Virus record (IMG/VR): IMGVR_UViG_3300028549_003662
Coordinates: 64,001 to 128,000 of that record
Source: a virus
Reading direction: 5' to 3' (one strand)
DNA length: 64,000 bases
The notes beneath the pieces are model-generated. The model did no database searches. It had not been told where the DNA came from and was given only the letters and a program-made list of their open reading frames with translations. Each line of letters starts with the position of its first letter. Position 1 is the first letter of the stretch. The position numbers and the translations under genes were made by a program. Shown one piece after another: positions 4,031 to 22,900 of the stretch.

Positions 4031-4177
4031 CCTCGCGCCACCCGCACACCCGCACACCCGCACACCCGCACCCGCACACCCGCACACCCGCACACCCGCA
4101 CCTCCCGCACACCCGCACCCGCACACCCGCACCCGCACACCTCGCACACCTCGCGCCACCCGCACCCGCACACCCGC
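4031..4177. repeat. (CACACCCG/CACCCG)n tandem array; G-rich on the minus strand
   Basis: About 16 CCCG-containing units read directly. Confidence 0.95.
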
Positions 4178-4196: not shown

Positions 4197-4561
4197 TCTA
4201 TAGCGGAGTCATTTCCATAGCTTACTACGTTCTGACGGCAGATGTGGGCCTCTATAGAGGGGCTATTTCCATAGCCGTTTAGAACCCGACCACAGATGCG
4301 GGCTTCAATAGCAGGCCTCTATAGACCTCGGCCCGCTATAGACGCGGAATGACACGCGCATGCCCCCTCTATAGAGGCGCGTGCCCGTATGTGCGCGTCC
4401 TCTATAGATCGCGGGCGTATTGCGCCTCTATAGAGGGGATCTCCCCTGTCGGGATAGCAGGTATGCGGGCACTTCTGGTAGCAGGAAACGCCCCTATTGC
4501 GTGACCTGGCCGGCGTTTCTATGGCCGCACAAGGCCATATAGGGCGTAAAGCCCCTATAGG
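4197..4561. repeat. Cluster of CTATAG palindromes (CCTCTATAGAGG x3 plus partial copies)
   Basis: Full copies at 4249, 4366, 4425; CCTCTATAGA at 4316, 4399; core also near 4198, 4336, 4555. Confidence 0.85.
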
Positions 4562-4790
4562 AGAGATACGCATAGCTGTGAATATCGGCGTTTTTCGTGG
4601 ATTATGTTGGTATCAGGGGCTTACAAGGCAAGCCCCCCTTTCGGGCCGATACTGCCCTACAGGGGAAAAGGGGAAGGATAAGAAGAGGGTATGAAGAGGC
4701 GATTATGGGCGATTATGGCCGATTATAGGCGAAAAGCAGGGCACAAGGGCTTTTTATGATGCCCTTGTGCCCTATATGGCGCGGCCCCTC

Positions 4791-5087
4791 CTATTCGAGT
4801 TCAAAGGCCATGCTACGGGTAATGCGCTCAATCTCCTGATACGGCACCTCCTCCTGTTCCGTCACGAATTCAATTACGCCGGAGTACCGAGACAACGGCT
4901 GGCGCAATTCCGCGCCTATGTCCATTGCCCGGAGTTCGTCCAATGCAGAGCGGCGCAACAATGCGGCGCTTTTGTCGTTTCCCTTGTCATATGGCGCGCG
5001 TCTTGGCGTTCTGGCCTTTGCGGATGCATCGGCGCAAAAAGCATCTAAAGCACGCTCAATCTTTGCGATATCGGTAGCAGAAAGCAT
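4791..5087 (-). CDS. Hypothetical protein
   Basis: AAGGGG RBS; flanked by hairpins at about 4738-4773 and 5111-5144. Confidence 0.65.
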   Translation of the reverse strand: MLSATDIAKIERALDAFCADASAKARTPRRAPYDKGNDKSAALLRRSALDELRAMDIGAELRQPLSRYSGVIEFVTEQEEVPYQEIERITRSMAFELE

Positions 5088-5154
5088 GATTTTTTCCCCT
5101 TTACGTTTACAGGGCAGGAAAGGCTTTTATGCCTTCCCTGCCCCGTATGGTGGA

Positions 5155-5769
5155 TTAAGCGCCTATCTTCTTGGCAATCTTCAGCATCATTGCGGCCAAT
5201 TGGTCAATGGCCGCGCCTTGCGAGTTCACCTTATCTGCCAGGGAAGCAGCTTCGCCATGCTCGGACTTGGCAGGCACCTTGTCCCCAGCGGCCATGCGCG
5301 AGGTCTTGGCAGGTGCCTTGTCTCCTGCGGCCATGCGCGAGGTCTTGGGCGTTTCCGTCAAGAGTTCCGTCATATGCTCGGAAACGCTCTTTCCGTAAAT
5401 GTCCTCAAAGTCGGCCTTGCCCTCCTCAAAACGGTTTTGCATGGTACGCGGCACCACTGCGAGGACATTGGAAGCGGCCTTTCCCTTTGGGGTGATAACC
5501 ATTTGCACGTCCACACCTTCAGGCAGGTAGCCGAACGCCCGCGCCATATCGGCAAGGTTGACGTAAAGGTCCGGGCCGCCTTCTTTGCGTCCGTCGAAAA
5601 CGGCAAGATGTCCACTTGTGCTGATATGCTTCACGCTCGCCGTGAAATTAACCGTCATTGGCTTTGTTTCGCTCTTGCGCGAAGTGGAAGCGGCCTTTGT
5701 TTCGCTCTTGCGCGAAGTGGAAGCGGCGGGAACGGCCTTTGTCGTGTTGGGCTTTGTCAATCTCGGCAT
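5155..5769 (-). CDS. Basic hypothetical protein with internal tandem repeats
   Basis: AAGGA RBS at MPRLTK; AASTSRKSETK x2 and KTSRMAAGDK x2. Confidence 0.75.
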   Translation of the reverse strand: MPRLTKPNTTKAVPAASTSRKSETKAASTSRKSETKPMTVNFTASVKHISTSGHLAVFDGRKEGGPDLYVNLADMARAFGYLPEGVDVQMVITPKGKAASNVLAVVPRTMQNRFEEGKADFEDIYGKSVSEHMTELLTETPKTSRMAAGDKAPAKTSRMAAGDKVPAKSEHGEAASLADKVNSQGAAIDQLAAMMLKIAKKIGA

Positions 5770-5854
5770 GTTGAATTCCTTTGCCCTTTCGGGCGGGGTT
5801 TTGCGGGTAGTGCGGGCTTGCACCGTTCCGCGAAAATTCATCTTATCCGGTTTT

Positions 5855-5904
5855 CTTGTCTCACGCCACAAAAGACGTGTCAAACATTATTTTCACTTTT
5901 TCAC
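5855..5904 (-). promoter_or_regulatory. Putative promoter with AT-rich upstream element
   Basis: TTGACA at 5878-5883 with a weak -10; shares CACTTTTTCAC with the 3.75 kb promoter. Confidence 0.4.
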
Positions 5905-6007
5905 AAAATAGATTGTTAACAATTACAAGGCACTGTTAAGCAAGTATGCGGAATGATAAAGAGAACATAGGCAAGGAAATTTTAGCAGGGGGGGGGTGGG
6001 CTGTTTG

Positions 6008-6156
6008 ACACCTCTCGCAGCGCACTACAAAATTTAGGCATACTGCCCTTTACAAAATGTGTACACCTCCATCGCAGCGCACTACAAAATTTAGGCATAC
6101 AAAATGTGTACACCTCCATCGCAGCGCACTACAAAATTTAGCTATACAAAATGTGT
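6008..6156. repeat. Three direct repeats of about 47 bp
   Basis: ACACCTC(CA)TCGCAGCGCACTACAAAATTTAG...ACAAAATGTGT x3, preceded by a G-run at about 5988-6000. Confidence 0.9.
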
Positions 6157-6167
6157 CGAGCGTAGGC

Positions 6168-6196
6168 AAAAAGAAAAGGGAGGCCTGACCTCCCTT
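6168..6196 (-). terminator. Rho-independent terminator
   Basis: AAGGGAGG/CCTCCCTT stem with a U-rich tail, after the 6200 stop. Confidence 0.7.
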
Positions 6197-6199
6197 CTA

Positions 6200-6436
6200 T
6201 CACAAGCAAGCACGCTGCTTACTTCGTGGCAGACCTGATCGCTCCCTCCCTGCTATCGTTGGCCGGTACGCTGATACACGCGCAGAGCATGCCACGTAGC
6301 CGAGACCGCGCAACTCCTCCAAAACCTCAATGGTGCGCACTGGGTCGATGTACGTCCACTCCACGGCCTCGTAGTCCGGCCGCCACATCCCCTGCGTTAC
6401 CAACAGAACGAGTACAGCGTGCTGGGCGTCTGTCAT
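6200..6436 (-). CDS. Small winged-helix-like protein (paralog of 7431-7691)
   Basis: LEELRGLGYV...YRPTIAGRE pattern; ATGA overlap with the purZ stop. Confidence 0.7.
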   Translation of the reverse strand: MTDAQHAVLVLLVTQGMWRPDYEAVEWTYIDPVRTIEVLEELRGLGYVACSARVSAYRPTIAGRERSGLPRSKQRACL

Positions 6437-7434
6437 TTCAGTAGCCCTGTGAATGTGAGGAGGCCGCTACTCCCCCTTATGGACGTGATATCCTCCAGGC
6501 ATGGACCCGTACCTACCAGGATACGCTTCCCACGCAGCAGGCGGGCAAACTCCTTCATCTCCTCCCAGGTGCGGACGTAGTTGTAGAAGTTCAGGAACAC
6601 CACGTCGGGGCGGCACAGCTTGAGGGCGTCGCGGAGTTGCTGCGCAGAGAAGGTGGCGACGCGGCGGATGCGCTGCGTTACCGTCGTGCGCTCAGCGGGC
6701 TGACCCAGCGCCTCCCATGACGTCTCCGTGCTGTCGGGGTAGAATGGGCCTGATGGCCCGCCTACACGGATCGGATACGTGCGCAGCGACAGATACACCC
6801 GGCCGAGATGACAGGGATGGAGACGGGCGTCGGATAACGCCTGGGAGGGGCTGATGTCGCGTGAGGTGCAGTGGGGGTAGAAACCGGCGTTGATGCCAAG
6901 CGACACCCCCTGTGCGGTCTCCATCAATGCCGTGCATCCGTCGTCGAGATGACCAGCCAGGTCAAAGGGCGCGCACATCGACCGCAGAAGCGGATGCTGG
7001 CCCGCCAATACGGCCTCACGGAGGATCTTGCGCGACAATGCATGGCCGGTGCCGGATGCCGTCGTTGATATGGCGGCAACAGCAGATGCGGGGTCGCGCT
7101 CGAATGCGACGTCGGTGTCCTCCACAACAGCAGCAGCGGGGTGGATGCGCACACGGTCGGCGTCGACATCATACGCGTCCATCTCCGCAAGCAGCGCCGC
7201 AGGAGCAATGATGCTCCCCGCGGTGAGGTAGATCTGCGCGCGCTTGTTGATGACACCACCAACCGGCAACTGCTTCACCATCACGCGGTAGCCGTCGCGC
7301 TCACGATATGTGTGCCCGGCATTCGGCGACAACGATGATGCGAAGATGTCGTAGTGGCGCGTGTTCGCGATGTACCCCGCCAGCGCACCCTTGCCGGTGC
7401 TGCCGAACTGCCCGTCTATGATGATGTCCATCAC
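6433..7434 (-). CDS. purZ: PurZ, 2-amino-2'-deoxyadenylosuccinate synthase (PurA paralog)
   Basis: DGQFGSTGKG (Ser where PurA has the Asp of GDEGKG), PNAGHT, AQG.SL, FYPHCTSRD, YPIRVGG, RTTVT..RRV, and FLNFYNY in place of the PurA TKLD; short 333-aa length. Confidence 0.88.
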   Translation of the reverse strand: MMDIIIDGQFGSTGKGALAGYIANTRHYDIFASSLSPNAGHTYRERDGYRVMVKQLPVGGVINKRAQIYLTAGSIIAPAALLAEMDAYDVDADRVRIHPAAAVVEDTDVAFERDPASAVAAISTTASGTGHALSRKILREAVLAGQHPLLRSMCAPFDLAGHLDDGCTALMETAQGVSLGINAGFYPHCTSRDISPSQALSDARLHPCHLGRVYLSLRTYPIRVGGPSGPFYPDSTETSWEALGQPAERTTVTQRIRRVATFSAQQLRDALKLCRPDVVFLNFYNYVRTWEEMKEFARLLRGKRILVGTGPCLEDITSIRGSSGLLTFTGLLK

Positions 7435-7691
7435 ACCACCGGGACGAGGTAGCCGTGCCGCTCGGCAGGAACGCCGGAAGCCTCACGTCCCTCTGCTGTC
7501 GGTGTATATGCGGTGCGATACGGGGCCACGACAGCGCATGTCGCGAGACCACGCCGCACAAGACTGTTCATGATGCGCGTGGTGTGCGAGCAGTTGCCGT
7601 ACGTCCACCCACAGGTGAAGTGCACCTCCCAGTACCCGTACTCGCACAACCCGCGCAGGCACGATAGCTGGTCACTCCCCAGGGCGCGCAT
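7431..7691 (-). CDS. Small winged-helix-like protein
   Basis: MNSLVRRGLA...YTPTAEGRE; coupled to the purZ start. Confidence 0.7.
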   Translation of the reverse strand: MRALGSDQLSCLRGLCEYGYWEVHFTCGWTYGNCSHTTRIMNSLVRRGLATCAVVAPYRTAYTPTAEGREASGVPAERHGYLVPVV

Positions 7692-7884
7692 CCGCGGGCT
7701 CCATCGTGAACTCGGCGACCACACGCACATCCACCTCCACGACTACGAGGTGGAATCCGAGCTCATATATGCGCTCCAGGCACATGTTGGTGCGGTCCTG
7801 CATCTTCGTAATAGCCTCTATGATGTCGTTGTAGCGCGCATCCTGCAGATCACCGGCGGGGTTCCGCCACCCCCAGCACCTCAT
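7672..7884 (-). CDS. Hypothetical protein
   Basis: ATGA coupling; GGGAGG RBS. Confidence 0.6.
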   Translation of the reverse strand: MRCWGWRNPAGDLQDARYNDIIEAITKMQDRTNMCLERIYELGFHLVVVEVDVRVVAEFTMEPADARPGE

Positions 7885-8618
7885 GACGCCTCCCCCACGA
7901 ACTTCAGCATCTCACGCAGCAGCTCGGTGCCGACAACGGTCTCGTCACCCCTGTGCTCCGAGCGCTGTATCTGCTCCAGCACCTGCGCGCGTATGATGCG
8001 CTCCCTGTCGCCGCACTGCGCGATGGGGCGCAGAGCACCCACGGAGGCGTAGAAGTCCATCAGGAGGTTCCGCGGCAGCGCGATGTGCGACTCCGGGTAC
8101 TCATGCAGCCTGTTGCGGACCTTACCCACCACAGCGTAGTCGCAGACGGGCTCCTCAATGAGCTTCAGCATGTCACGCAACAGCACCACCGGTGCGATGA
8201 CGGCATCGGCGTCGTCAGGGTTGTAGATGCACTTCTCCACCGCATCGAGGATGTCGAACTCGCGCTGCAGCAATGGACGCTTCGCACGCAGAGTGTGCTC
8301 CACCTCATGGTGGGCGTCCAGGAGCATCTGGCGCGGGAGCCCGATGAGGCGCTCCACGACACCATATAAGGCCCGGTGGAGTTGCGTGATGGCGTCAGGG
8401 GGTGCTGGGACGGCGCGCGCAAGAACCCGCAGGAGCACGATGAGGTCGCCGACGTCGACATGCGCATGCAGTGTACCCTGCTGCCGCGTGAGGCCCTCCA
8501 CGCGCAGAAACGCCGCATGCTCCTTCGGCGTCAGCTTGTGCGCGCAGAACGGGCACGGCTCCGCGACATCGTTGCTGCGCCACTCACGGCCGCATGTTCC
8601 GCAGTTGATTTCCATCAC
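7881..8618 (-). CDS. Hypothetical protein with N-terminal Zn ribbon
   Basis: CGTC..W...EPCPFC. Confidence 0.7.
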   Translation of the reverse strand: MMEINCGTCGREWRSNDVAEPCPFCAHKLTPKEHAAFLRVEGLTRQQGTLHAHVDVGDLIVLLRVLARAVPAPPDAITQLHRALYGVVERLIGLPRQMLLDAHHEVEHTLRAKRPLLQREFDILDAVEKCIYNPDDADAVIAPVVLLRDMLKLIEEPVCDYAVVGKVRNRLHEYPESHIALPRNLLMDFYASVGALRPIAQCGDRERIIRAQVLEQIQRSEHRGDETVVGTELLREMLKFVGEAS

Positions 8619-8959
8619 AGCGCTCCTTCACCGAGCGCTGTGAGCTCGTACTTGCCGTTTTCGCGGAAGACGAGACCGAGATCCGTCGCTTCGCGCAGCA
8701 GCGTCGCCGTGATGGCGCGCACGTCGCCGTTCTTCACGGCATGCAGCGCCCGCACCAGCGCGGCGTCCATAGCGGGCGGGGCGTCTTCCACGAAGCGGAC
8801 GAAGTTCGGGTACGCGATCTCGACATTGCCGTCATCGCGTTCCACCACAATACCGGCTGTGTGGCTCCCCAGGACGACCCCGGTGTACCTCACGCTTTGC
8901 TTGGTGTAATCGGTGTGGACCTCACAGCGGCGCCCGGAAATACGTGTATTATCCAACAT
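8615..8959 (-). CDS. Hypothetical protein with C-terminal winged-helix-like segment
   Basis: AGGAGG RBS; DLGLVFRENGKYELTALG. Confidence 0.65.
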   Translation of the reverse strand: MLDNTRISGRRCEVHTDYTKQSVRYTGVVLGSHTAGIVVERDDGNVEIAYPNFVRFVEDAPPAMDAALVRALHAVKNGDVRAITATLLREATDLGLVFRENGKYELTALGEGAL

Positions 8960-9464
8960 CTCGTCCTCCTGTGCGCGCCCGGCATTCGAGCGCGGTTTTT
9001 TCGATGTGACACTTCGTGCAGAGCGTCTGCAGGTTGCTCGGCAGCCACGCCGCATACCACTCGATGACATTAGCCTGCGTGAGCTCCTGCAGGTCCAGCA
9101 GCGGCCACCTGTGCAGCGGTATGATGTGGTCGACCTCCGTCGCGGTCTCGTACGCTGTGAGCCCGCATGTCGCGCACGTCCAGTTGTCACGCTTCTTGAT
9201 GAGCTTGCGCATGTACTTCCAGTCGAAGAGCATGCGGTACTCGTTCACGCACTCCAGGTGCCAGGTCGCGCGCGTCGGCGACTTCCGCTGCCCCTTCAGG
9301 ATGGGCTGGTCGCACCACTCACACCAGCCGCGGCGGTCGGTGCCGTGACGCTTGTAGTGGGCGTACATCCACGGCGGCTTCGGCGGGCAGCGGTGGAGGT
9401 GCGGAACCACGATACCCGCGCGCACCGGCGGCGTCCGATCCCCTGCGCTCTTCAGGAGCTTCAT
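8949..9464 (-). CDS. HNH endonuclease
   Basis: RDNWTCATCG...EVDHIIP...NLQTLCTKCHIEKT. Confidence 0.9.
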   Translation of the reverse strand: MKLLKSAGDRTPPVRAGIVVPHLHRCPPKPPWMYAHYKRHGTDRRGWCEWCDQPILKGQRKSPTRATWHLECVNEYRMLFDWKYMRKLIKKRDNWTCATCGLTAYETATEVDHIIPLHRWPLLDLQELTQANVIEWYAAWLPSNLQTLCTKCHIEKTALECRARTGGRDVG

Positions 9465-9805
9465 CCCTTCCGCGCCTCCGCGATAGCGAAGCGCAGCGCG
9501 TCCGCGATCTCATCGCGCCGCAAACCCCCGATGACGACCGTCTGGGCGTCAAGGCCGTCCACAAGCAGCAGAAGGCGTTCCAGAATCTCGAATTGGCGCG
9601 CGTAGAAGATGCGGTGCAGTGTGCACTCTTCGCCCTTCAGGGGGTAGTTGTGGTCCATCCCCATGTCGTAGGTGTCGCGGAGGCCGCCGCAGGTCTTGCA
9701 CGTCCAGGGATTGCTGCGATGACCACCACGGATGGGGCAGTCGAGCGGGCACTCGTCGCTTTCCACCATCTCCTTCGTGATGACAAACTCCTTAGAATAT
9801 GCCAT
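9461..9805 (-). CDS. Cys-rich hypothetical protein
   Basis: GGGAGG RBS at MAYSKEF; CPLDC, CKTC. Confidence 0.65.
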   Translation of the reverse strand: MAYSKEFVITKEMVESDECPLDCPIRGGHRSNPWTCKTCGGLRDTYDMGMDHNYPLKGEECTLHRIFYARQFEILERLLLLVDGLDAQTVVIGGLRRDEIADALRFAIAEARKG

Positions 9806-10712
9806 GACCGCCTCCCTGCAGGAAGCGCTCGACGTCGTCCCAACGTGTGGCGGCGATGGCGAGGTTGGCGCGATGCTGCTCCTCTTTGACCGCAACAGCA
9901 TCCCAGGCGTCGGCGTCGATGAGGTTGTCGATCTCGTCCGCGATGAGGGCGTCGATGACAGTGGGTTCCAGGGCATCAAGCTCCCAGGAACTGTCGCCGT
10001 AGAGGGTGCGGTAGCCGTCGGAGCGGCTGTCGCTGTCCTTGGCGGGGTTGGGCGGCGGACGGTACTGCTCGATCTGGTCGAAATTGAGGGCAAGGCGGCG
10101 CACCTCCACCTCCTCACCGGCGAACATGGCCAGCCGGTCGGTGTTGTCGCGTGTCATGTCGATCCCAGAGGGGTCGTGGTCGCCAAGGTGGAACACGATG
10201 GGGGTGAGGCCGCGCTGCAGCAGTGCTGCGAACCTGCTGCCCGCGCGCCACTGCTCGCTCTGGCTGGTGTAGCCGCGGCAGGCGAAGAAGGGGACACGGA
10301 AACGGCGGCACGCGGGTTCGATGACACCCACGAGGGCGTCCTTCTCGATCCACACTTCGGGGCGGTAGCGCTGCCCCTCCCAGAGGTCGAGGCAGAACTG
10401 ATCGGCAAGGGCGTGCATGACCTCGCTGGGGCTCTCCCAGGACGGTGAGGTGCGGACGTTGCGCGTGCGGTCCTCAATGGCCTCCCAGTCGATGAGACCC
10501 GCGAGGCGGCCGTCGTTGATGATGCCGCCGAGGCGCTTGTACTCGCTCTGTCGGTTCGGGACGATGTCGCGGGCCACGAACTGGTAGTAGAGCTGGCGCA
10601 GCGTCAGTGTGAAGCCCTGGCGGCGGTACTCCTCAATGATGATGTTCGCCGTCTCAATGACGGCCATGCTGCCGGGGTGGAAGCGCTTGGGGACGTACAA
10701 CTCACAGGCCAT
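9792..10712 (-). CDS. Toprim-domain protein (Topo VI-A/Spo11-like, wHTH plus Toprim)
   Basis: TLRQLYY (putative catalytic Tyr), EVWIEKDAL, CRGYTS, HLGDHDPSG (DxD), WELDAL. Confidence 0.8.
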   Translation of the reverse strand: MACELYVPKRFHPGSMAVIETANIIIEEYRRQGFTLTLRQLYYQFVARDIVPNRQSEYKRLGGIINDGRLAGLIDWEAIEDRTRNVRTSPSWESPSEVMHALADQFCLDLWEGQRYRPEVWIEKDALVGVIEPACRRFRVPFFACRGYTSQSEQWRAGSRFAALLQRGLTPIVFHLGDHDPSGIDMTRDNTDRLAMFAGEEVEVRRLALNFDQIEQYRPPPNPAKDSDSRSDGYRTLYGDSSWELDALEPTVIDALIADEIDNLIDADAWDAVAVKEEQHRANLAIAATRWDDVERFLQGGGHGIF

Positions 10713-11076
10713 GACCGGTTTCCTCCATGTCATCGACGAACTCAGCGAGGCTCGTCCACATGTTCTTCCCCTCGGAGTGTCCCTTTCCGGTGCTGTAGCA
10801 GCACTCCTTGGCGTTCGGGCAGGGGTCTTTGCGCGTGGGGCGGTTCAGGCAGGTCGCGCAGGCCAAGTTGTTCTTCAAGGTCGCGATGGCGCCGTCCTTG
10901 AGCCGGATCTCTTTGCCCAGGTCGGATATGACGACAAGGAGATCAGGGAAAACAACGAAAAGGCGCTCGCAGAGGTAGCGGTACGCGGTGACGTCCTTGT
11001 CAGGGAATGTGGCGCGGTCATGACAGGTGGCTTCGTAGCACCGGCAGAGATCCGCAAGTTCGATGTCGGTAATCAT
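10702..11076 (-). CDS. Hypothetical protein, Cys-rich C-terminus
   Basis: GGAGG RBS; CATC...CP...CC. Confidence 0.6.
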   Translation of the reverse strand: MITDIELADLCRCYEATCHDRATFPDKDVTAYRYLCERLFVVFPDLLVVISDLGKEIRLKDGAIATLKNNLACATCLNRPTRKDPCPNAKECCYSTGKGHSEGKNMWTSLAEFVDDMEETGHGL

Positions 11077-11174
11077 GGTGGGGTGCGCCTCCGGCCACGG
11101 TGTGGCCAATCAGGGTTAGGGTCGGGCTTCGAAACGGCCGGGAGGAAGGGGCTCCCGGCCGTACATATTTTGGT

Positions 11175-11203
11175 CTTTTACGCGGAATTTTACGGCCTGT
11201 CAA
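11175..11203 (-). promoter_or_regulatory. Sigma70-like promoter for the Toprim-HNH-purZ operon
   Basis: TTGACA-17 bp-TAAAAG. Confidence 0.5.
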
Positions 11204-11516
11204 GGACGTTTTTGCTGATTTTCCACCTTCCATACCATATATGGCCGTCCCAGGTGTGCGGGCCGCTCTCGACCACTACCGGGCCGTCGAAGAGGGCGTC
11301 GCACGTCCATTGCAGCACGCATTCGATGGCGCGGCGCAGGGCGTGGTCGTGCATCTTCTTTCCGGCGAGCCGCATGCAGTACATCTCAAAGAAGAGGCGG
11401 CTCAGTGCCTGGATGAGAGCTCGCGCCGGAGCGGCAATGACGAAGTGCACGATGAGGGCGGTGATTACCACCCACACCGCGATGCCTGACCATTGTAGAA
11501 ACGCCGCCAGCGTCAT
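11190..11516 (-). CDS. Membrane-anchored hypothetical protein
   Basis: N-terminal TM helix. Confidence 0.6.
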   Translation of the reverse strand: MTLAAFLQWSGIAVWVVITALIVHFVIAAPARALIQALSRLFFEMYCMRLAGKKMHDHALRRAIECVLQWTCDALFDGPVVVESGPHTWDGHIWYGRWKISKNVLDRP

Positions 11517-11520
11517 TTCA

Positions 11521-12219
11521 TTACTCCACAGGGCACTTGAAGGTGAGGTGCGACATCAGCGGAGCATACGCCGCCACGGCGGCAATCCACTGCACGTGCT
11601 TGTTCGCGCCGTTGATGACCCCGCCGAGGATGTTTTCGAGGACATTGACGTGCACGCTTCCTTCGCCATTCGGGCACACCATCGAAGCGTCGAAGATGTT
11701 GCGGTGGTAGGCACGCACGTAGACGGTGTTGGTGCCCTCGTCGTAGGCGAAGATCTCCCAATGCGGGACGCTGATGCCGGCGTACTCAAACAGGACGTCG
11801 TTGGCGGCCTTCTCGACGCCGGCGGCGTCGGTGCGCGAGATCGCAGCAGTCTTCGAGGGGAAGCGCATGCGGCCGTCCTTGGTGCGATGCAGCATGTACA
11901 TCTTCCCCTGGGGGTCGGCGAGCACGACGGCAATGGTCATATCGCCGGGTTTGGGCAGCATGCTGTCCTCGGCAATCAAGCTCGACGTGTACACGACGGG
12001 CTCGGTCGTCCCCGCCATAGCCACAGCGGCGCTGGTGAGGGTTTCGCGCAACACATCGGACTGGTCGCCGACACTGAGGACGGAGGGCGAGATGGTGACG
12101 TCGTCAGTGATCTCTTCGTCGCCGATGAACTCCAGGCCATAGGTGTCAAGGCTGGCGAGACTCGGAGCCTCCGTGGTGTCCTTGCTTTTGCTTTCTTCAG
12201 GACGGCGTATCTTGGCCAT
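11521..12219 (-). CDS. Hypothetical protein, possible degenerate Nudix fold
   Basis: AVVLADPQGKMYMLHR...RFP...EKAANDVLFEYAGI follows Nudix topology but lacks REUxEE. Confidence 0.5.
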   Translation of the reverse strand: MAKIRRPEESKSKDTTEAPSLASLDTYGLEFIGDEEITDDVTISPSVLSVGDQSDVLRETLTSAAVAMAGTTEPVVYTSSLIAEDSMLPKPGDMTIAVVLADPQGKMYMLHRTKDGRMRFPSKTAAISRTDAAGVEKAANDVLFEYAGISVPHWEIFAYDEGTNTVYVRAYHRNIFDASMVCPNGEGSVHVNVLENILGGVINGANKHVQWIAAVAAYAPLMSHLTFKCPVE

Positions 12220-14669: not shown

Positions 14670-15134
14670 TTAGTAGGTGATGTTGGGCTTCACGAGGCGC
14701 GCGCCTTTGAGGCCCACTTCGAGCAGTTTCGAGTACCCGTAGTCGTGGCAGACCCATCTTCCGTCCAGGATGCCCCAGTTGCGGTAGAAGACGTCGGTGA
14801 AGAAGTTGGGGATGCTCTTCGGGAACGGCGGATCGTTCTTTCCGGGCTCGCGCGTGCGCGTCATCACCAGGGCGCGGCCCAGCGGGGAGATGAAGTGCAC
14901 CGGTGCGAACCACTTCGCCCAGATGCTGTCTCTCGCGGTGAGCCAGATGCTGTGCTCGTAGCAGTTGTGGAAGGTGGACGCACATTCTATCTTTACCACC
15001 CACTTCTCGTTGGGGCGGTAGACGTAGACCTCACGCGTCCCGCCTTCCCCGATGCGGTCGGAGAAGAGGAGCTGGTTGATGTCGGCCTGCAGGTCAGGCT
15101 TCCAGTTCAGGTATTCCTGGTGGCTCACTGGCAT
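14670..15134 (-). CDS. Minimal protein-kinase-like (PKL fold) protein
   Basis: IGEGGTREVY, VVK, N..E, DVFYRNWG (catalytic loop), HDYG. Confidence 0.7.
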   Translation of the reverse strand: MPVSHQEYLNWKPDLQADINQLLFSDRIGEGGTREVYVYRPNEKWVVKIECASTFHNCYEHSIWLTARDSIWAKWFAPVHFISPLGRALVMTRTREPGKNDPPFPKSIPNFFTDVFYRNWGILDGRWVCHDYGYSKLLEVGLKGARLVKPNITY

Positions 15135-15663: not shown

Positions 15664-16217
15664 TCCGCGACCTTCTTTCTGCAGATTTCCTCGTAAGCGA
15701 AGCGCACGACGTCCTCCACGGTGGCTGCCTCGAAGATGCTACGGTCGCCGCTGTCAGAGGTCAGGAACACGCCCCATCCCTTCCCGTAAGGCGCCAAGTG
15801 CATATGTGTGGTGCCGTCCGTCGCTTTGTCGAGCTTCTCCTTGATATCCTCCAGCATGTTGTGGATGTAGGAGGTGGGGGTGCGCTGCGCCTGCGGAGGG
15901 TTGGCGAATATGACGGTGCACGGCGTCGGGAACTCTTCCAAGTCCTGGTGGCGCGTGAAGTGGCGCATCTTCGCCGCCTTGTTCTGCATGGCCCGGCACA
16001 GCAGGTCCACCTGCAGGTCGCCGCAGGCCACCATGAGCTCGACGACGTAGAGGGCGTCGCCGACCTCCTTATGCAGCAGCATGTGGTTGGTGGTGTGCGC
16101 GGGGTCGTTGGCATCAAAGGCGTCCGGCCCGAAGCGGTGGATCTTCTGAACGATATGGCCGACCTCACACGCTTCTTCGGTGAGGTAGTGCAAGCGTTCG
16201 TCGCTGGAAGCGCTCAT
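15660..16217 (-). CDS. MazG-like nucleotide pyrophosphohydrolase
   Basis: LTEEACEV...QKIHRFG...KEVGD (EExxE...ExxD). Confidence 0.75.
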   Translation of the reverse strand: MSASSDERLHYLTEEACEVGHIVQKIHRFGPDAFDANDPAHTTNHMLLHKEVGDALYVVELMVACGDLQVDLLCRAMQNKAAKMRHFTRHQDLEEFPTPCTVIFANPPQAQRTPTSYIHNMLEDIKEKLDKATDGTTHMHLAPYGKGWGVFLTSDSGDRSIFEAATVEDVVRFAYEEICRKKVAE

Positions 16218-16495
16218 TTCGTGTGCTCCTTCAGGGCCTTCGCGCCCATGTCAGAAATGATGATGTCGCATTTTCCGCAGCCAAACTCGCTCTTGATATT
16301 CATCCGCTTGGCGAGGCCGACACGGATCAGGCTATCGAAGATGCGTTTCGCGAACACGCCATATTTGTGAGGCGGCTTGACGTGGTAGACCTCCGTGGTG
16401 TTGCGCCGGAACGGTGTCGGGTACCACTCGCAGATTACGAGACCAGCATCCACGACCTTCAGGGCGTCAATGGCGCGCTTGGTGAGTGCGCTCAT
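16214..16495 (-). CDS. Small winged-helix-like protein
   Basis: AAGGAG RBS; FDSLIRVGLA...ISDMGAKAL. Confidence 0.6.
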   Translation of the reverse strand: MSALTKRAIDALKVVDAGLVICEWYPTPFRRNTTEVYHVKPPHKYGVFAKRIFDSLIRVGLAKRMNIKSEFGCGKCDIIISDMGAKALKEHTK

Positions 16496-16785
16496 AACGG
16501 CAACTCCTTGAGGATCATGCCCTCTTCGGGCGCCGCTGCGACTTCCAATGCACGCTGCTTCGCCGAGAACGCTTCCGCGCGCTTCTTGAACGCACCCAGG
16601 AAGCTCTCCATGATGGGGACTTCGCCGCGCTCCCAGGCCTGCACGAACCCGAAACGCTCTTCGACAGGTGCCAGCAGCTCCGGCACGCAGCACGAGAAGT
16701 CGGGGCAGCACTCGTCGCTGTCGGGGTTGTGGGTGGGAGTGCCATCCAGCCACAGTTTAAGCTGTTCGCCGCCGTTCATCGTCAT
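16492..16785 (-). CDS. Hypothetical protein (ECCPDFSCC motif)
   Basis: GGGAG RBS; distinctive Cys motif. Confidence 0.65.
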   Translation of the reverse strand: MTMNGGEQLKLWLDGTPTHNPDSDECCPDFSCCVPELLAPVEERFGFVQAWERGEVPIMESFLGAFKKRAEAFSAKQRALEVAAAPEEGMILKELPL

Positions 16786-19327: not shown

Positions 19328-19462
19328 TTAACCGAAGGCAGCGATGCCCAGGGCGGGGGTGAGGACGCGGTCCTTGTGCTCCTGCTGCTTGCCCTGGTTC
19401 CAGGCCCCTACGGGGCGGTAGTACCCGGTGACGCGAGCATAGGTGCCGGTGGTGCGAATCAT
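19328..19462 (-). CDS. Stand-alone NrdD glycyl-radical peptide (44 aa, not in the ORF track)
   Basis: Hand translation MIRTTGTYARVTGYYRPVGAWNQGKQQEHKDRVLTPALGIAAFG; GAGGT RBS. Confidence 0.88.
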   Translation of the reverse strand: MIRTTGTYARVTGYYRPVGAWNQGKQQEHKDRVLTPALGIAAFG

Positions 19463-19497: not shown

Positions 19498-19941
19498 TTA
19501 GACGGTTTTGCCAGTGCTGCCGAGGCCGCCAGCACCACGAGCAGTTGCGGGAAGCTCATCGACCTCTTCGAAGACACCCTGGGCGACGGGGACGATCATC
19601 ATCTGAGCAACGCGTTCGCCGTGCTCGACGCGGCAGCCGTTGGGGCGGTCGGTCCACAAACCAAGGGTGATTTCGCCACGGAAATCATAGTCAATGACGC
19701 CGATCTGGTTGCTCAGCTTGAGGCCTTCGTTGATCCCCTTGCCGCTGCGCACGGCGATGATGCCGACGTAGCCTTCAGGTATGGCGACGGCGATGCCGGT
19801 GCTGACCTTGATGGGGGAGCCCGGCATGATGTTCTCGCAGCAGCGGGTGAGGATGGCCTGCAGGTCGAAGGCGGCGCTGCCATCGGTCTTGTAGGTGGGG
19901 ATGACGGCATCGGCGTGCATGAGCTTGATTTGGATGTTCAC
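19498..19941 (-). CDS. dut: Trimeric dUTPase
   Basis: GSAAFDL, RSG, GVIDYDFRGE, RVAQ, RGAGGLGSTG. Confidence 0.92.
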   Translation of the reverse strand: MNIQIKLMHADAVIPTYKTDGSAAFDLQAILTRCCENIMPGSPIKVSTGIAVAIPEGYVGIIAVRSGKGINEGLKLSNQIGVIDYDFRGEITLGLWTDRPNGCRVEHGERVAQMMIVPVAQGVFEEVDELPATARGAGGLGSTGKTV

Positions 19942-20516
19942 TATTTGTCTCCTTCAATGGGTTTGATGACGTTGAGCCGCCATCCGTCGATGGCGAACTT
20001 GTCCTTGAGGAAGTCGAGGGTTCCGAAGCGTTCCGCGCGCGCCCCCATGTAGTCAACGACGCGAAGCTCCTTGTAGGTGGCGCTCTTGCAGCCGAACAGC
20101 ATGATGTCGAGCAAGCGCTGCCGGTACTGGCCAAGATTGCGGACGCCGTCATTGGTGGTCTTCACAGACAGCACGACGCTGTCGAAGACATCGCGGAATC
20201 CATTCAGGCCGTTCGTGTGCAGCGCCATGCTACGCCCCTCGGCCATGAAGTGGTCAGTGGCGGCTTGGAACCCTACAAGGTTCGCTGTGGGCTCGCCCCC
20301 GGAGAAGACGACGGCCACGCGGTTGCCCATCATGGCGGCGTCGGTCTTCTTCAGGGCGGCACTCACATCCTCAAGGTCGTACACGGGGCGCCCACCCACG
20401 ACGCGCTGGTTGTAGCAGTACGGGCAACTCAGGTTGCAGCCGTTGAAGAACAACGTGGCGGCCAAGCGGTTCGGGTAATCGACAAACCCGAAAACGAAGT
20501 CGTGGATGAACTTCAC
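19941..20516 (-). CDS. nrdG: Anaerobic RNR activase (radical SAM)
   Basis: GCNLSCPYCYN, FSGGEPT, LHTNG; adjacent to nrdD. Confidence 0.9.
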   Translation of the reverse strand: MKFIHDFVFGFVDYPNRLAATLFFNGCNLSCPYCYNQRVVGGRPVYDLEDVSAALKKTDAAMMGNRVAVVFSGGEPTANLVGFQAATDHFMAEGRSMALHTNGLNGFRDVFDSVVLSVKTTNDGVRNLGQYRQRLLDIMLFGCKSATYKELRVVDYMGARAERFGTLDFLKDKFAIDGWRLNVIKPIEGDK

Positions 20517-20518
20517 GG

Positions 20519-22900
20519 CTAGCCCTCCACGTGGTCGGGGTAGCGGAGGCGGAACGCTTCCACCTGTTCGTCACTGTGCTCGAAGGGGCAGAACTCGTGC
20601 GTGCCGGGTATGATGCGGCCGCAGCACTCGCACTTCGTGTACACGGGGCTCACAGAGAAGTACGGGATGGGGGTGCTGCACATCGCCACCACCATCGCCT
20701 CCACTCCGACGCCGTCCAGTTCCTCACCGGTGTGGAGGTGCACAACGGTACCTCCGCTCAGGATGGGCTGCAGCACGGACTGCGTGCGCAGCAGAAGGTC
20801 CACCTGTCCCTGCAGCTCCACCGGGATGTGGCAGGAGTTGGTGAGATAGGGGGCATCAGAGGTTCCGCGATGCGGGGCCTGGGGGAACACCTTCAACATC
20901 TTGATGGCGAGCTTGTGGGCGGCGGACTCCGCAGGTGTGGCTTCGAGGTTGAAGAGCTTGCCCGTCTTCTCCGTCCACTCCTCAGTCGTGGTGCGCATGT
21001 GCTCCAGGATCTTCGCCGCCACAGCCAGGTTGGCCTCTTCAAGGAAGGAGTTGTCGTCGCCGCAGATGTACTCCACGGCCTCCCAGAGACCCACGAAGCC
21101 GACAGTGGTGAAGAAGGTGCTGAAGCCGCGCTTGAAGTTGGCCTTGGCCATGCTGAAGAAGCCGTCGTCGAAGGCCTTCTCCACGATTCCGCGCTTCCAA
21201 AGCTGCTCGTCGCGCACCAGACCCATGACGCGGTCAAGCTGCTGGTAGAAGTGCGCGAGCCGTTTCTCGGTGGTGTTGTGGTTCTCGAACACGCTGCTCA
21301 GCATGGCCAGCATGGGGAGGTTGAGCGTCACCACCTGCAGGGAGCCGGTCTGGTCGGCGTTGCCGAAGAGGCCGCCCACGTGCTTTCTTATATTCTTTTC
21401 CGATATTTGCAAACGACAGCACATACTCCTTACATCTGCGGGGTTTATCTTCTCCCCGGCGCTGTGGCCGTTGATGTAGTTCTGGAAGTAGGGGTTGCCG
21501 AACTTCGCGCTCAGCGAGAAGACGAGATCCTTGAGGGGGTGGCGGAAGAAGGCCTCGGTGACAGAGATGGTGAGGACGGGGAAGGTGAAGCCGGTCCCCT
21601 TGCTGTCGCCGCGCATGAAGTTCTTGAGGATGGCTTCGGCGACGATGTTCTGCCACATCTCGATATCGCCGTAGGTGAGGTACTCGCCCTTGCAGGAGCA
21701 TTCGAAGGTGTTGGCACCCCAGCGTTCTTCGAAGGTCTGGCCGCCGACGAGGGGGCGACGATCACGCATGTCTTCAGGAATTGTCAATGATAACGTGATA
21801 TTACTGAAGGGGCTGTTTCCGGTAACGAACATTTTGCGTGTGCTGCCGGGGACATTGCGACGCGCAATGAATGTTCCGGTGTTCGTCGTGGGACACCAAA
21901 CTTTCCCTTTGTAGTGCTTACGCCGAACTTCCGTAACGGCGAACTCCCCGATAACATTGGGCGTGTAACGGGTGTCCGGGCGCTTAATCTTCGGAATGTA
22001 ATATGCGCCTCCGGCGCTTTCCAACTCTGCAGCTTCACGCACATACAGTTTAGTCAGGCCAGAATCGGTGTACACGACACGATGCTTTTCGGTCACAACA
22101 GATTCGTAGCCCTCTCCTGAGAAATGCAAAAGGTCGCCATCGTGGTCGTAGATGTTCACATGCGTGAGCTTGTCTGACGTGACAGTTCTTGTTTCGAGGT
22201 CGACAACATATATGGAGTCGCCAACACTGAGCTCGTCGTAGCGCTTCCACCCCTTGTGCGTCAGGCACTCGGTTTTCTCATCGACGCACTGGCCGCCATA
22301 GCGGGTATTGTAATTGAGATGAAAAATCATCTCCTGCATGGATTGATCGACTTCTTCGAGAGTCATCTTCATGGCCATCTCAGGAGTCATATCGAAGGTA
22401 TTGATGCGGGAGAGGAAGAAATCCAGGGCGTAGGGGCCGAGGAAGAGGTCAACATCGTTGAAGGCCTGGGCACCGGCGAACTCGTTGCTGCAGGCTCCGA
22501 TGTGATTGATGATGTGGTTGACGGCGCTGCGCAGGCGCTTGGCGGGGCCGCTGATGATGTTCCCGGCCGATATGCCGTCATGGAGGAGATTCTCTAGGCT
22601 GTGGCCGCTGCAGTATGGGGTCTTCACGCCCAGGCCGAGATCGTGGATGTGCACGGCGCCGAGCTCATGCAGGTCAGCGAGACCATCATGTCCGGCCTTG
22701 CGCATCTCCGAGAGGTAGTTGCGCTTCAGCGCCTCTTCACCGATCACCAGCAGCAGTCCCGCCGGGGAGAGATGGCTCATGTTGGCGTTTTCCTTGGCCA
22801 GCAGACCCTCGCCGAGGTAGTTGGCGATAATGGGGTCGATGTCGAGAGTTGGGCCTTGGGGTGAGGCCGTGCCTGTGGCCGAGCTTTGAAGCTGGTCCAT
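20519..22900 (-). CDS. nrdD: Class III ribonucleoside-triphosphate reductase, intein-containing and lacking the glycyl-radical tail
   Basis: HIHDL, PYC, AGAQA, FTFP, RSMCCRL, TGS..VVTLNLP, EATPAES, SGG; ends at the CECC...CP Zn site. Confidence 0.92.
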   Translation of the reverse strand: MDQLQSSATGTASPQGPTLDIDPIIANYLGEGLLAKENANMSHLSPAGLLLVIGEEALKRNYLSEMRKAGHDGLADLHELGAVHIHDLGLGVKTPYCSGHSLENLLHDGISAGNIISGPAKRLRSAVNHIINHIGACSNEFAGAQAFNDVDLFLGPYALDFFLSRINTFDMTPEMAMKMTLEEVDQSMQEMIFHLNYNTRYGGQCVDEKTECLTHKGWKRYDELSVGDSIYVVDLETRTVTSDKLTHVNIYDHDGDLLHFSGEGYESVVTEKHRVVYTDSGLTKLYVREAAELESAGGAYYIPKIKRPDTRYTPNVIGEFAVTEVRRKHYKGKVWCPTTNTGTFIARRNVPGSTRKMFVTGNSPFSNITLSLTIPEDMRDRRPLVGGQTFEERWGANTFECSCKGEYLTYGDIEMWQNIVAEAILKNFMRGDSKGTGFTFPVLTISVTEAFFRHPLKDLVFSLSAKFGNPYFQNYINGHSAGEKINPADVRSMCCRLQISEKNIRKHVGGLFGNADQTGSLQVVTLNLPMLAMLSSVFENHNTTEKRLAHFYQQLDRVMGLVRDEQLWKRGIVEKAFDDGFFSMAKANFKRGFSTFFTTVGFVGLWEAVEYICGDDNSFLEEANLAVAAKILEHMRTTTEEWTEKTGKLFNLEATPAESAAHKLAIKMLKVFPQAPHRGTSDAPYLTNSCHIPVELQGQVDLLLRTQSVLQPILSGGTVVHLHTGEELDGVGVEAMVVAMCSTPIPYFSVSPVYTKCECCGRIIPGTHEFCPFEHSDEQVEAFRLRYPDHVEG
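21815..22288 (-). mobile_element. Mini-intein (158 aa) in NrdD
   Basis: GGQ|CVDEKTECLTHKGWK...VTEKHRV...KVWCPTT...FIARR...VTGN|SPF; no endonuclease domain. Confidence 0.88.

Follow-up and report, generated by a model that had tools for sequence, protein, structure and literature searches.

What does a purZ gene do in a phage that carries none of its customary partner genes? The question is raised by a 64,000-nucleotide stretch of viral DNA (here called the window), which comprises bases 64001–128000 of one 146,098-bp IMG/VR virus record (G000, GC content 60%). The last 409 bases of this record are identical to the first 409, so that the assembly closes on itself, and CheckV rates it 91% complete. 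PurZ initiates the substitution of 2-aminoadenine (Z) for A in phage DNA. To our knowledge, current models hold that a Z-genome requires PurZ together with a dATP-removing enzyme (DatZ, DutZ, DUF5664 or DUF550). The proven Z phages that we know of are without exception small, ∼38–48 kb.

The gene carries the sequence hallmarks of an ATP-type PurZ

The open reading frame at 6433–7434 on the minus strand translates without internal stops, and its translation contains all the motifs that the initial annotation had named: the GSTGKG P-loop (QFGSTGKG, residues 9–16), STTASG (123–128), ETAQG (172–176), the RTTVT loop (ERTTVTQRIRR, 247–257) and FLNFYNY (280–286). As the protein is recorded in the database with 332 aa, ATG 7431 is probably the true start (Table 1). 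The protein matched Pfam PF00709 (Adenylsucc_synt, 3e-26) and PHROG 1211 ('2-aminooxy adenylosuccinate synthetase', 1e-64). Its top PDB sequence matches were the PurZ proteins of S-2L (6FKO, 1e-55) and phiVC8 (7ODX, 8e-43), followed at lower rank by a 'PurA-like' phage enzyme (7VF6, 3e-37) and an archaeal PurA (2D7U, 2e-28); full-length alignment to the solved 6FKO and 7ODX structures places it in the adenylosuccinate-synthetase fold. Among family models, the NCBIfam PurZ model NF038379 ranked first with 238.5 bits, ahead of an archaeal-type PurA model with 165 bits. The score lies below the curated NF038379 cut-off of 300 bits, which, the model being of the narrow 'exception' type, shows divergence rather than exclusion. 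Identity to cultured phages did not exceed 40.7% in the August 2025 collection. Comparison with relatives that are 85% and 72% identical gave dN/dS of 0.17–0.21 over dS of 0.6–1.7.

For the residue comparison, the window protein was aligned to five characterised PurZ proteins, to two PurZ0 proteins and to E. coli PurA. The PurZ signature residues, whose roles are given in bioRxiv 10.1101/2025.10.22.683976, are all kept: F12, S14, T15, P233, Y244, W252, G256, T262, N294, F295, N297 and Y298 of phiVC8 correspond to F10, S12, T13, P221, Y232, W240, G244, T250, N282, F283, N285 and Y286 of the window protein. Window S12, in the P-loop, aligns with phiVC8 S14 and E. coli D13, that is, a serine stands in place of the catalytic Asp13 of PurA. 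Together with F10 and T250, S12 makes up the residues for the 2-amino group (10.1101/2025.10.22.683976); F10 and T250 are kept both in the window protein and throughout the clade of relatives described below, and the Pro, Tyr, Trp and Gly positions marked out by differential conservation are kept in the window protein as well. The ATP-type nucleotide pocket is present as N282-F283-Y284-N285-Y286 (NFxNY; phiVC8 F295 and Y298), an adenine-stacking motif at the place where E. coli PurA has TKLD. STTASG and ETAQG, which the initial annotation had singled out as variant motifs, are indeed there, but we read them as lineage variation: at these positions, 47 relatives agree throughout only in T125, G128, G130, E172, Q175 and G176.

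Phylogeny gave the same assignment. In a FastTree phylogeny of 92 sequences, the window protein grouped with the PurZ clade and with neither PurZ0 nor PurA (local support 96), and an IQ-TREE maximum-likelihood tree likewise placed it within PurZ and apart from PurZ0 (SH-aLRT 96). The PurZ proteins of S-2L, phiVC8 and Ochrobactrum phage vB_OspP_OH belong to this same PurZ clade and have the fold as well as the catalytic and substrate-defining residues in common with the window protein, at 37–41% identity. The genomic setting differs: in those 38–45 kb phages, purZ lies within a datZ-mazZ-purZ cluster beside replication genes, whereas the 146-kb window phage carries purZ alone, at the tail of a block of nucleotide-metabolism genes. 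Together, the residues, phylogeny, selection and PDB and PHROG matches bear out the reading as PurZ rather than PurA, and by every sequence criterion the window purZ is an intact ATP-type PurZ under selection.

purZ closes a block of nucleotide-metabolism genes

As the initial annotation had it, purZ is the penultimate gene of its operon, followed by a 78-aa ORF and then by a strong terminator-like hairpin (Table 1). The gene is tightly packed between its neighbours. The stop codon of the 99-aa ORF on its 5' side overlaps the purZ ATG (TGATG), and translational coupling of the two is likely; the purZ stop in turn overlaps the ATG of the 78-aa ORF (ATGA). The co-directional block begins with the anaerobic ribonucleotide reductase genes, and the interval from 23500 to 7000 showed no convincing terminator on the minus strand. 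The nearest relative, the syntenic L009, whose PurZ is 72% identical, repeats the NrdG/NrdD gene order and has nrdD, dut, speD and purZ in the same order as the window, with purZ again at the operon end and a 79-aa gene in the place that corresponds to the 78-aa ORF. Because L009 is syntenic from nrdD to purZ, this shows that purZ is stably placed in the window-phage lineage.

Table 1. Features of the purZ block and the phage DNA polymerase (window positions unless marked as genome positions)
Feature	Position	Strand	Details
purZ CDS	6433..7431	(-)	332 aa from ATG 7431; in-frame GTG 7434 gives 333 aa
99-aa ORF, function unassigned	7431..7730	(-)	phrog_14896 (function likewise unassigned), 1e-7; 5' neighbour of purZ
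78-aa ORF, last gene of unit	6200..6436	(-)	no family match; 3' neighbour of purZ
Intrinsic-terminator-like hairpin	6174..6198	(-)	11 pairs, then T-run; closes leftward gene block
HNH endonuclease	8949-9464	(-)	in 7672-11477 run
313-aa protein	9792-10733	(-)	phrog_6247 'DNA topoisomerase', 2e-113; in 7672-11477 run
MazG-superfamily NTP pyrophosphohydrolase, 185 aa	15660..16217	(-)	phrog_4856, 2e-13; 8 kb upstream of purZ
Canonical trimeric dUTPase	19498..19941	(-)	PF00692, 8.5e-21; 12 kb upstream of purZ
NrdG activase (anaerobic ribonucleotide reductase)	19941-20516	(-)	head of purZ co-directional block
NrdD (anaerobic ribonucleotide reductase)	20519-22900	(-)	head of purZ co-directional block
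Family-A DNA polymerase	genome 17964-20651		phrog_17

Several further elements of the region deserve mention. A run of genes at 7672–11477 on the minus strand separates the 99-aa ORF from the rest of the operon. L009 lacks counterparts to the majority of them, though it does have one to ORF 9461–10117, and the run therefore suggests an insertion in the window-phage lineage. A 152-aa protein of unassigned function (14670–15128, minus strand; phrog_4301, 7e-29) is kept in L009; its glycine-rich loop, with VVK after it, recalls a minimal N-lobe of the protein-kinase type. After dut lies a 44-aa micro-ORF (19328–19462, minus strand); at the corresponding position, L009 has a separately called 50-aa gene (L009:1257–1409) with a Pfam NRDD match. 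Just beyond the terminator of the purZ operon, a 47-bp unit is repeated in tandem about three times in intergenic DNA at 6015–6160. The 24-bp core of this repeat occurs at a single location in the window, and the repeat may serve the next leftward unit as a promoter or regulatory array. A second array, at 4036–4177, consists of ∼18 copies of the octamer CACCCGCA (alternatively, three copies of a 47-bp unit), and no confident gene was called there.

Known Z partners were not found anywhere in the genome

The initial annotation had noted that no datZ, mazZ or dpoZ adjoins purZ. This understated the case, as the whole 146-kb genome yielded neither DatZ nor MazZ nor a close DpoZ homologue. Pfam models returned nothing genome-wide for DatZ (PF01966, HD; PF12917, YfbR-like; PF13023, HD_3), DUF550 (PF04447, dATP-dGTP_PPHyd), DUF5664 (PF18909, dGTP_diPhyd_N), NDT/DmtZ (PF05014), PurB (Lyase_1) or Gmk (guanylate kinase). 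PF03819 (MazG) proved too insensitive as a MazZ detector, with the S-2L and OH controls negative, so custom HMMs were used instead, built from 63 DatZ and 67 MazZ sequences that adjoin PurZ on small contigs, PMBT28 seeds included. Custom HMMs for DatZ, MazZ, DUF550, DUF5664 and DmtZ gave no match in G000. BLAST and phmmer searches with the DatZ, MazZ, DpoZ, DUF550-DUF5664, DutZ, DmtZ and PurB proteins of phiVC8, OH, S-2L, SH-Ab 15497, Wayne and Ghobes retrieved only PurZ, a weak PolA match and Dut. The search of the remaining genome that the initial annotation had proposed, for an HD dATPase, DUF550 and the polymerase type, thus gave neither of the former two, and a family-A polymerase that resembles DpoZ only distantly: it is 21–27% identical to DpoZs, and its top phage matches are non-Z phages at 24–28%. 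Nor did G000 yield an enzyme known to act as a dATPase, a dATP pyrophosphatase or a dAMP hydrolase.

The PurZ0 systems of Arthrobacter phage Wayne and Gordonia phage Ghobes, which combine PurZ0, DutZ, DmtZ and DUF5664 (PMC12884076), resemble the window phage in being without DatZ and MazZ and in having a Dut-family gene near the synthetase. The window phage differs from them in that it has neither NDT/DmtZ nor DUF5664 and its Dut is closer to ordinary Duts; its synthetase has NFxNY in place of the PurZ0 form and is separated from PurZ0 in the tree. The window system is outside both described architectures, the datZ-mazZ-purZ cluster and the PurZ0-DutZ-DmtZ set.

A PurZ clade without known flanking partner genes in unrelated large phages

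We scanned IMG/VR with a PurZ alignment and took the best 80 of 349 relatives with at most 10 kb of flank per side. In the 92-sequence tree, the window PurZ belonged to a 13-locus clade with a local support of 97, here called the solo clade; the IQ-TREE tree gave a matching picture. In neither tree is the solo clade basal; in both it arises from among PurZs that have DatZ. Its loci lie mostly on contigs of 67–287 kb, with three on short contigs. DatZ, MazZ, DUF550 and DUF5664 were found in the flanks (≤10 kb per side) of none of its 13 loci; outside the clade, 74 of 76 loci have at least one of them, and the two partner-less loci there have purZ at the extreme contig end.

Whole records were searched as well. 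PF12917 matched in each of the four known DatZ phages and in 26 of 27 small contigs (29–91 kb), but not in the PurZ0 controls. It had no match in any of the eight large records with the PurZ nearest to that of the window, and the custom HMMs agree. Two of the eight are rated 100% and 93% complete; five are incomplete (30–78%), so that only in G000, G001 and G011 can the partners be called absent with confidence. In G011, a weak DUF550/DUF5664-like match lies 123 kb from purZ. Comparison of the eight genomes by tblastn and all-against-all blastp left PurZ itself, at 44–55% identity, as the one protein family that they all share. A dUTPase occurs in five (four of the seven others plus G000) and no further family in more than four. 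GC content is 27–47% in the seven other records versus 60% in G000. Across the solo clade, no conserved purZ neighbour emerged beyond close pairs, and further large contigs from other databases had no HD gene near purZ.

The partner-less arrangement is thus a property of a whole PurZ subclade among unrelated large phages, which goes beyond what a single window could reveal. In the literature, with subscription journals outside the search, we found no link of PurZ to large or jumbo phages and no mention of a partner-less PurZ clade. Judged from sequence, we regard both the identity of the enzyme and this genomic pattern as established. A coherent large-phage clade without the known adenine-removing enzymes shows that PurZ is selectable on its own, and selection of a lone PurZ points to new routes of adenine exclusion or to partial Z substitution as a natural state. 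Counts of Z-DNA viruses from PurZ homology alone may accordingly merge two biologically different groups.

Candidate helper proteins in the purZ block

The 185-aa MazG-like protein shares with the MazZ, DUF550 and DUF5664 proteins of Z phages its superfamily and an acidic metal-binding pattern, retained here as EExxE...ExxD. It differs from them in an added C-terminal domain, has no profile similarity to DUF550 or DUF5664 and is not MazZ-like (hhalign probability 5%). Against PF03819 it scored 19.4 bits, below the cut-off, and 32 of 60 relatives match that model. Its AlphaFold model has a pLDDT of 91.6, and the extra domain (residues 117–180) adopts a confident alpha-beta3-alpha fold. Among the PurZ loci examined, large or small, none but a close relative has a homologue. 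The protein is, on its sequence, the sole candidate for a dNTP-hydrolysing helper in the block, albeit a weak and lineage-specific one rather than a conserved partner. A fold search with the model was discarded, as it returned generic helical matches only (Foldseek E > 0.008; VIA Z ≤8.2, helical hairpins) and nothing beyond sequence. The C-terminal domain gave weak Foldseek matches to dsRBD-type domains and to T7 Gp1.2 (probability 0.89–0.96, E 0.1–0.3), which we take as a lead only; T7 Gp1.2 is an inhibitor of host dGTPase.

Two other proteins were considered and set aside. The window Dut passes the equivalog model NCBIfam NF001862 (129.8 bits, cut-off 103) and is 45–47% identical to ordinary phage Duts versus 30–32% to the DutZ proteins of Ghobes and Wayne; on identity and best hits, its sequence argues against a DutZ. 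In its motif III the conserved sugar-stacking Tyr is replaced by Phe (IDYDFRGE), likewise in the relative, and the four remaining motifs are canonical. A 232-aa protein (11521–12219, minus strand) was dropped as a Nudix-type dATP sink, as its Nudix-box glutamates are not conserved relative to its homologue. In the ESM Atlas its C-terminal 140 residues are Nudix-like (TM by target ≤0.76), and the protein is kept in the syntenic relative; going by the modelled fold, it may be a Nudix protein of an atypical or non-catalytic kind.

A proposed role for the lone PurZ and its alternatives

On balance, we favour a reading in which the product is a working ATP-type PurZ (N6-succino-2-amino-2'-deoxyadenylate synthase) that would feed dZTP. 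Its solo subclade probably reached unrelated large phages by horizontal transfer of the one gene. Z in virion DNA is predicted, its extent being left free. To judge from conserved residues and solved homologues, PurZ would join dGMP and aspartate, with ATP or dATP, into the succino intermediate, from which host PurB would release dZMP. Host guanylate or nucleoside-diphosphate kinases (Ndk) would then yield dZTP, and the phage family-A polymerase would place it opposite T. G000 encodes none of the host-type PurB, guanylate kinase and Ndk functions; in known Z phages, host enzymes complete the dZTP pathway (PMC8342488). The dGMP could come from host-DNA breakdown and/or, as a conjecture, from dGTP hydrolysis by the phage MazG-like enzyme.

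How much A would give way to Z depends, in this proposal, on whether there is a dATP or dAMP sink of a kind not yet recognised; of the local proteins, the MazG-like one is the strongest candidate for such a sink. Because DatZ, DutZ, DUF5664, DUF550 and DmtZ were recruited independently for keeping A out (PMC12884076), a further such exclusion route is plausible, and we consider it and a tolerated mixed A/Z DNA equally plausible. The class III ribonucleotide reductase of the phage itself should make dATP, which counts against the Z reading. For the subclade as a whole, uncultured and widespread, and spread as a single gene among large or jumbo phages without known adenine-exclusion enzymes, we see roughly an even chance that it comprises either the first natural hybrid A/Z genomes or phages that exclude adenine through families not yet tied to Z-DNA, with the MazG-superfamily protein here and an NT5C on another contig (L175, below) as candidates.

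Taken on its own, a natural hybrid DNA, in which a working PurZ without dATP exclusion replaces a fraction of A by Z to give a mosaic A/Z genome, is a possible but doubtful outcome. It would fit the failure to find a known dATP- or dAMP-removing enzyme in G000 and a dATP supply from phage NrdDG. In E. coli, moreover, incomplete Z-clusters with PurZ but without DatZ and MazZ lowered the substitution rate (PMC8342488), and a solo PurZ may for this reason yield little Z. However, complete substitution is the only state reported in nature (PMC13128860), and the ∼200 G000 genes without assigned function could hide a sink. A-containing palindromes also seemed to speak for unmodified A, as palindromes are strongly avoided in G000 (observed/expected: AAGCTT 0/52, CCATGG 0/46, CTCGAG 0/40, CCCGGG 0/38, TGATCA 0/22, CTAG 48/201; TCCGGA does not occur). 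Yet similar avoidance is seen in proven Z phages, with GATC at an observed/expected ratio of 0.01–0.02 in phiVC8 and PMBT28, and we rejected site avoidance as a non-discriminating proxy. In the other large PurZ phages, palindrome avoidance is slight.

The initial annotation had offered, as one option, a PurZ repurposed for partial or different chemistry. Its partial form, incomplete replacement of A by Z, survives as the hybrid DNA just described. Its different form, in which solo-clade enzymes would use IMP, dIMP or GMP as purine-salvage auxiliary proteins and leave no Z in the DNA, we think improbable: although the usual partners are all absent, the score lies under the NCBI PurZ cut-off and auxiliary nucleotide-metabolism genes are common in large phages, every residue that tells PurZ from PurA, including S12, F10 and T250, is kept across the clade, and the clade is nested among DatZ-bearing PurZs.

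The other option, a canonical Z system with its partners dispersed in the genome, has very little left to recommend it. The MazG-superfamily gene and the dUTPase gene do lie in the purZ gene block, but Pfam and custom-HMM searches of the whole of G000, and BLAST searches with known Z-phage proteins, turned up no such partner, hhalign shows no relationship between the MazG-like family and MazZ, the Dut resembles ordinary Duts more closely than DutZ, and the 409-bp end overlap argues against partners in the ∼9% that CheckV estimates to be missing. Equally hard to credit is a recently acquired passenger without current role, which horizontal transfer and an operon-end position near mobile-looking genes such as the HNH endonuclease might suggest, as dN/dS is ∼0.2, the position is conserved in the syntenic relative and the start/stop overlaps with neighbouring ORFs suggest operon integration.

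Genes beside purZ on two further contigs

NT5C was absent from G000 and from the seven other large records. On a 135-kb contig of the solo clade (L175, GCA_015657855.1), an NT5C 5'(3')-deoxyribonucleotidase gene lies directly 3' of purZ, with a second copy 7 kb on (9103–9699 and 16044–16664); this NT5C is a candidate for an alternative dAMP drain. On another solo-clade contig of 167 kb (L173, GCA_017973835.1), purZ comes right after the gene for a 1210-aa intein-containing protein (4372–8004) and 5.5 kb from a gene for GTP cyclohydrolase I (1917–2525). GTP cyclohydrolase I is the first enzyme of the 7-deazaguanine route, and this arrangement hints at a second purine modification alongside PurZ.
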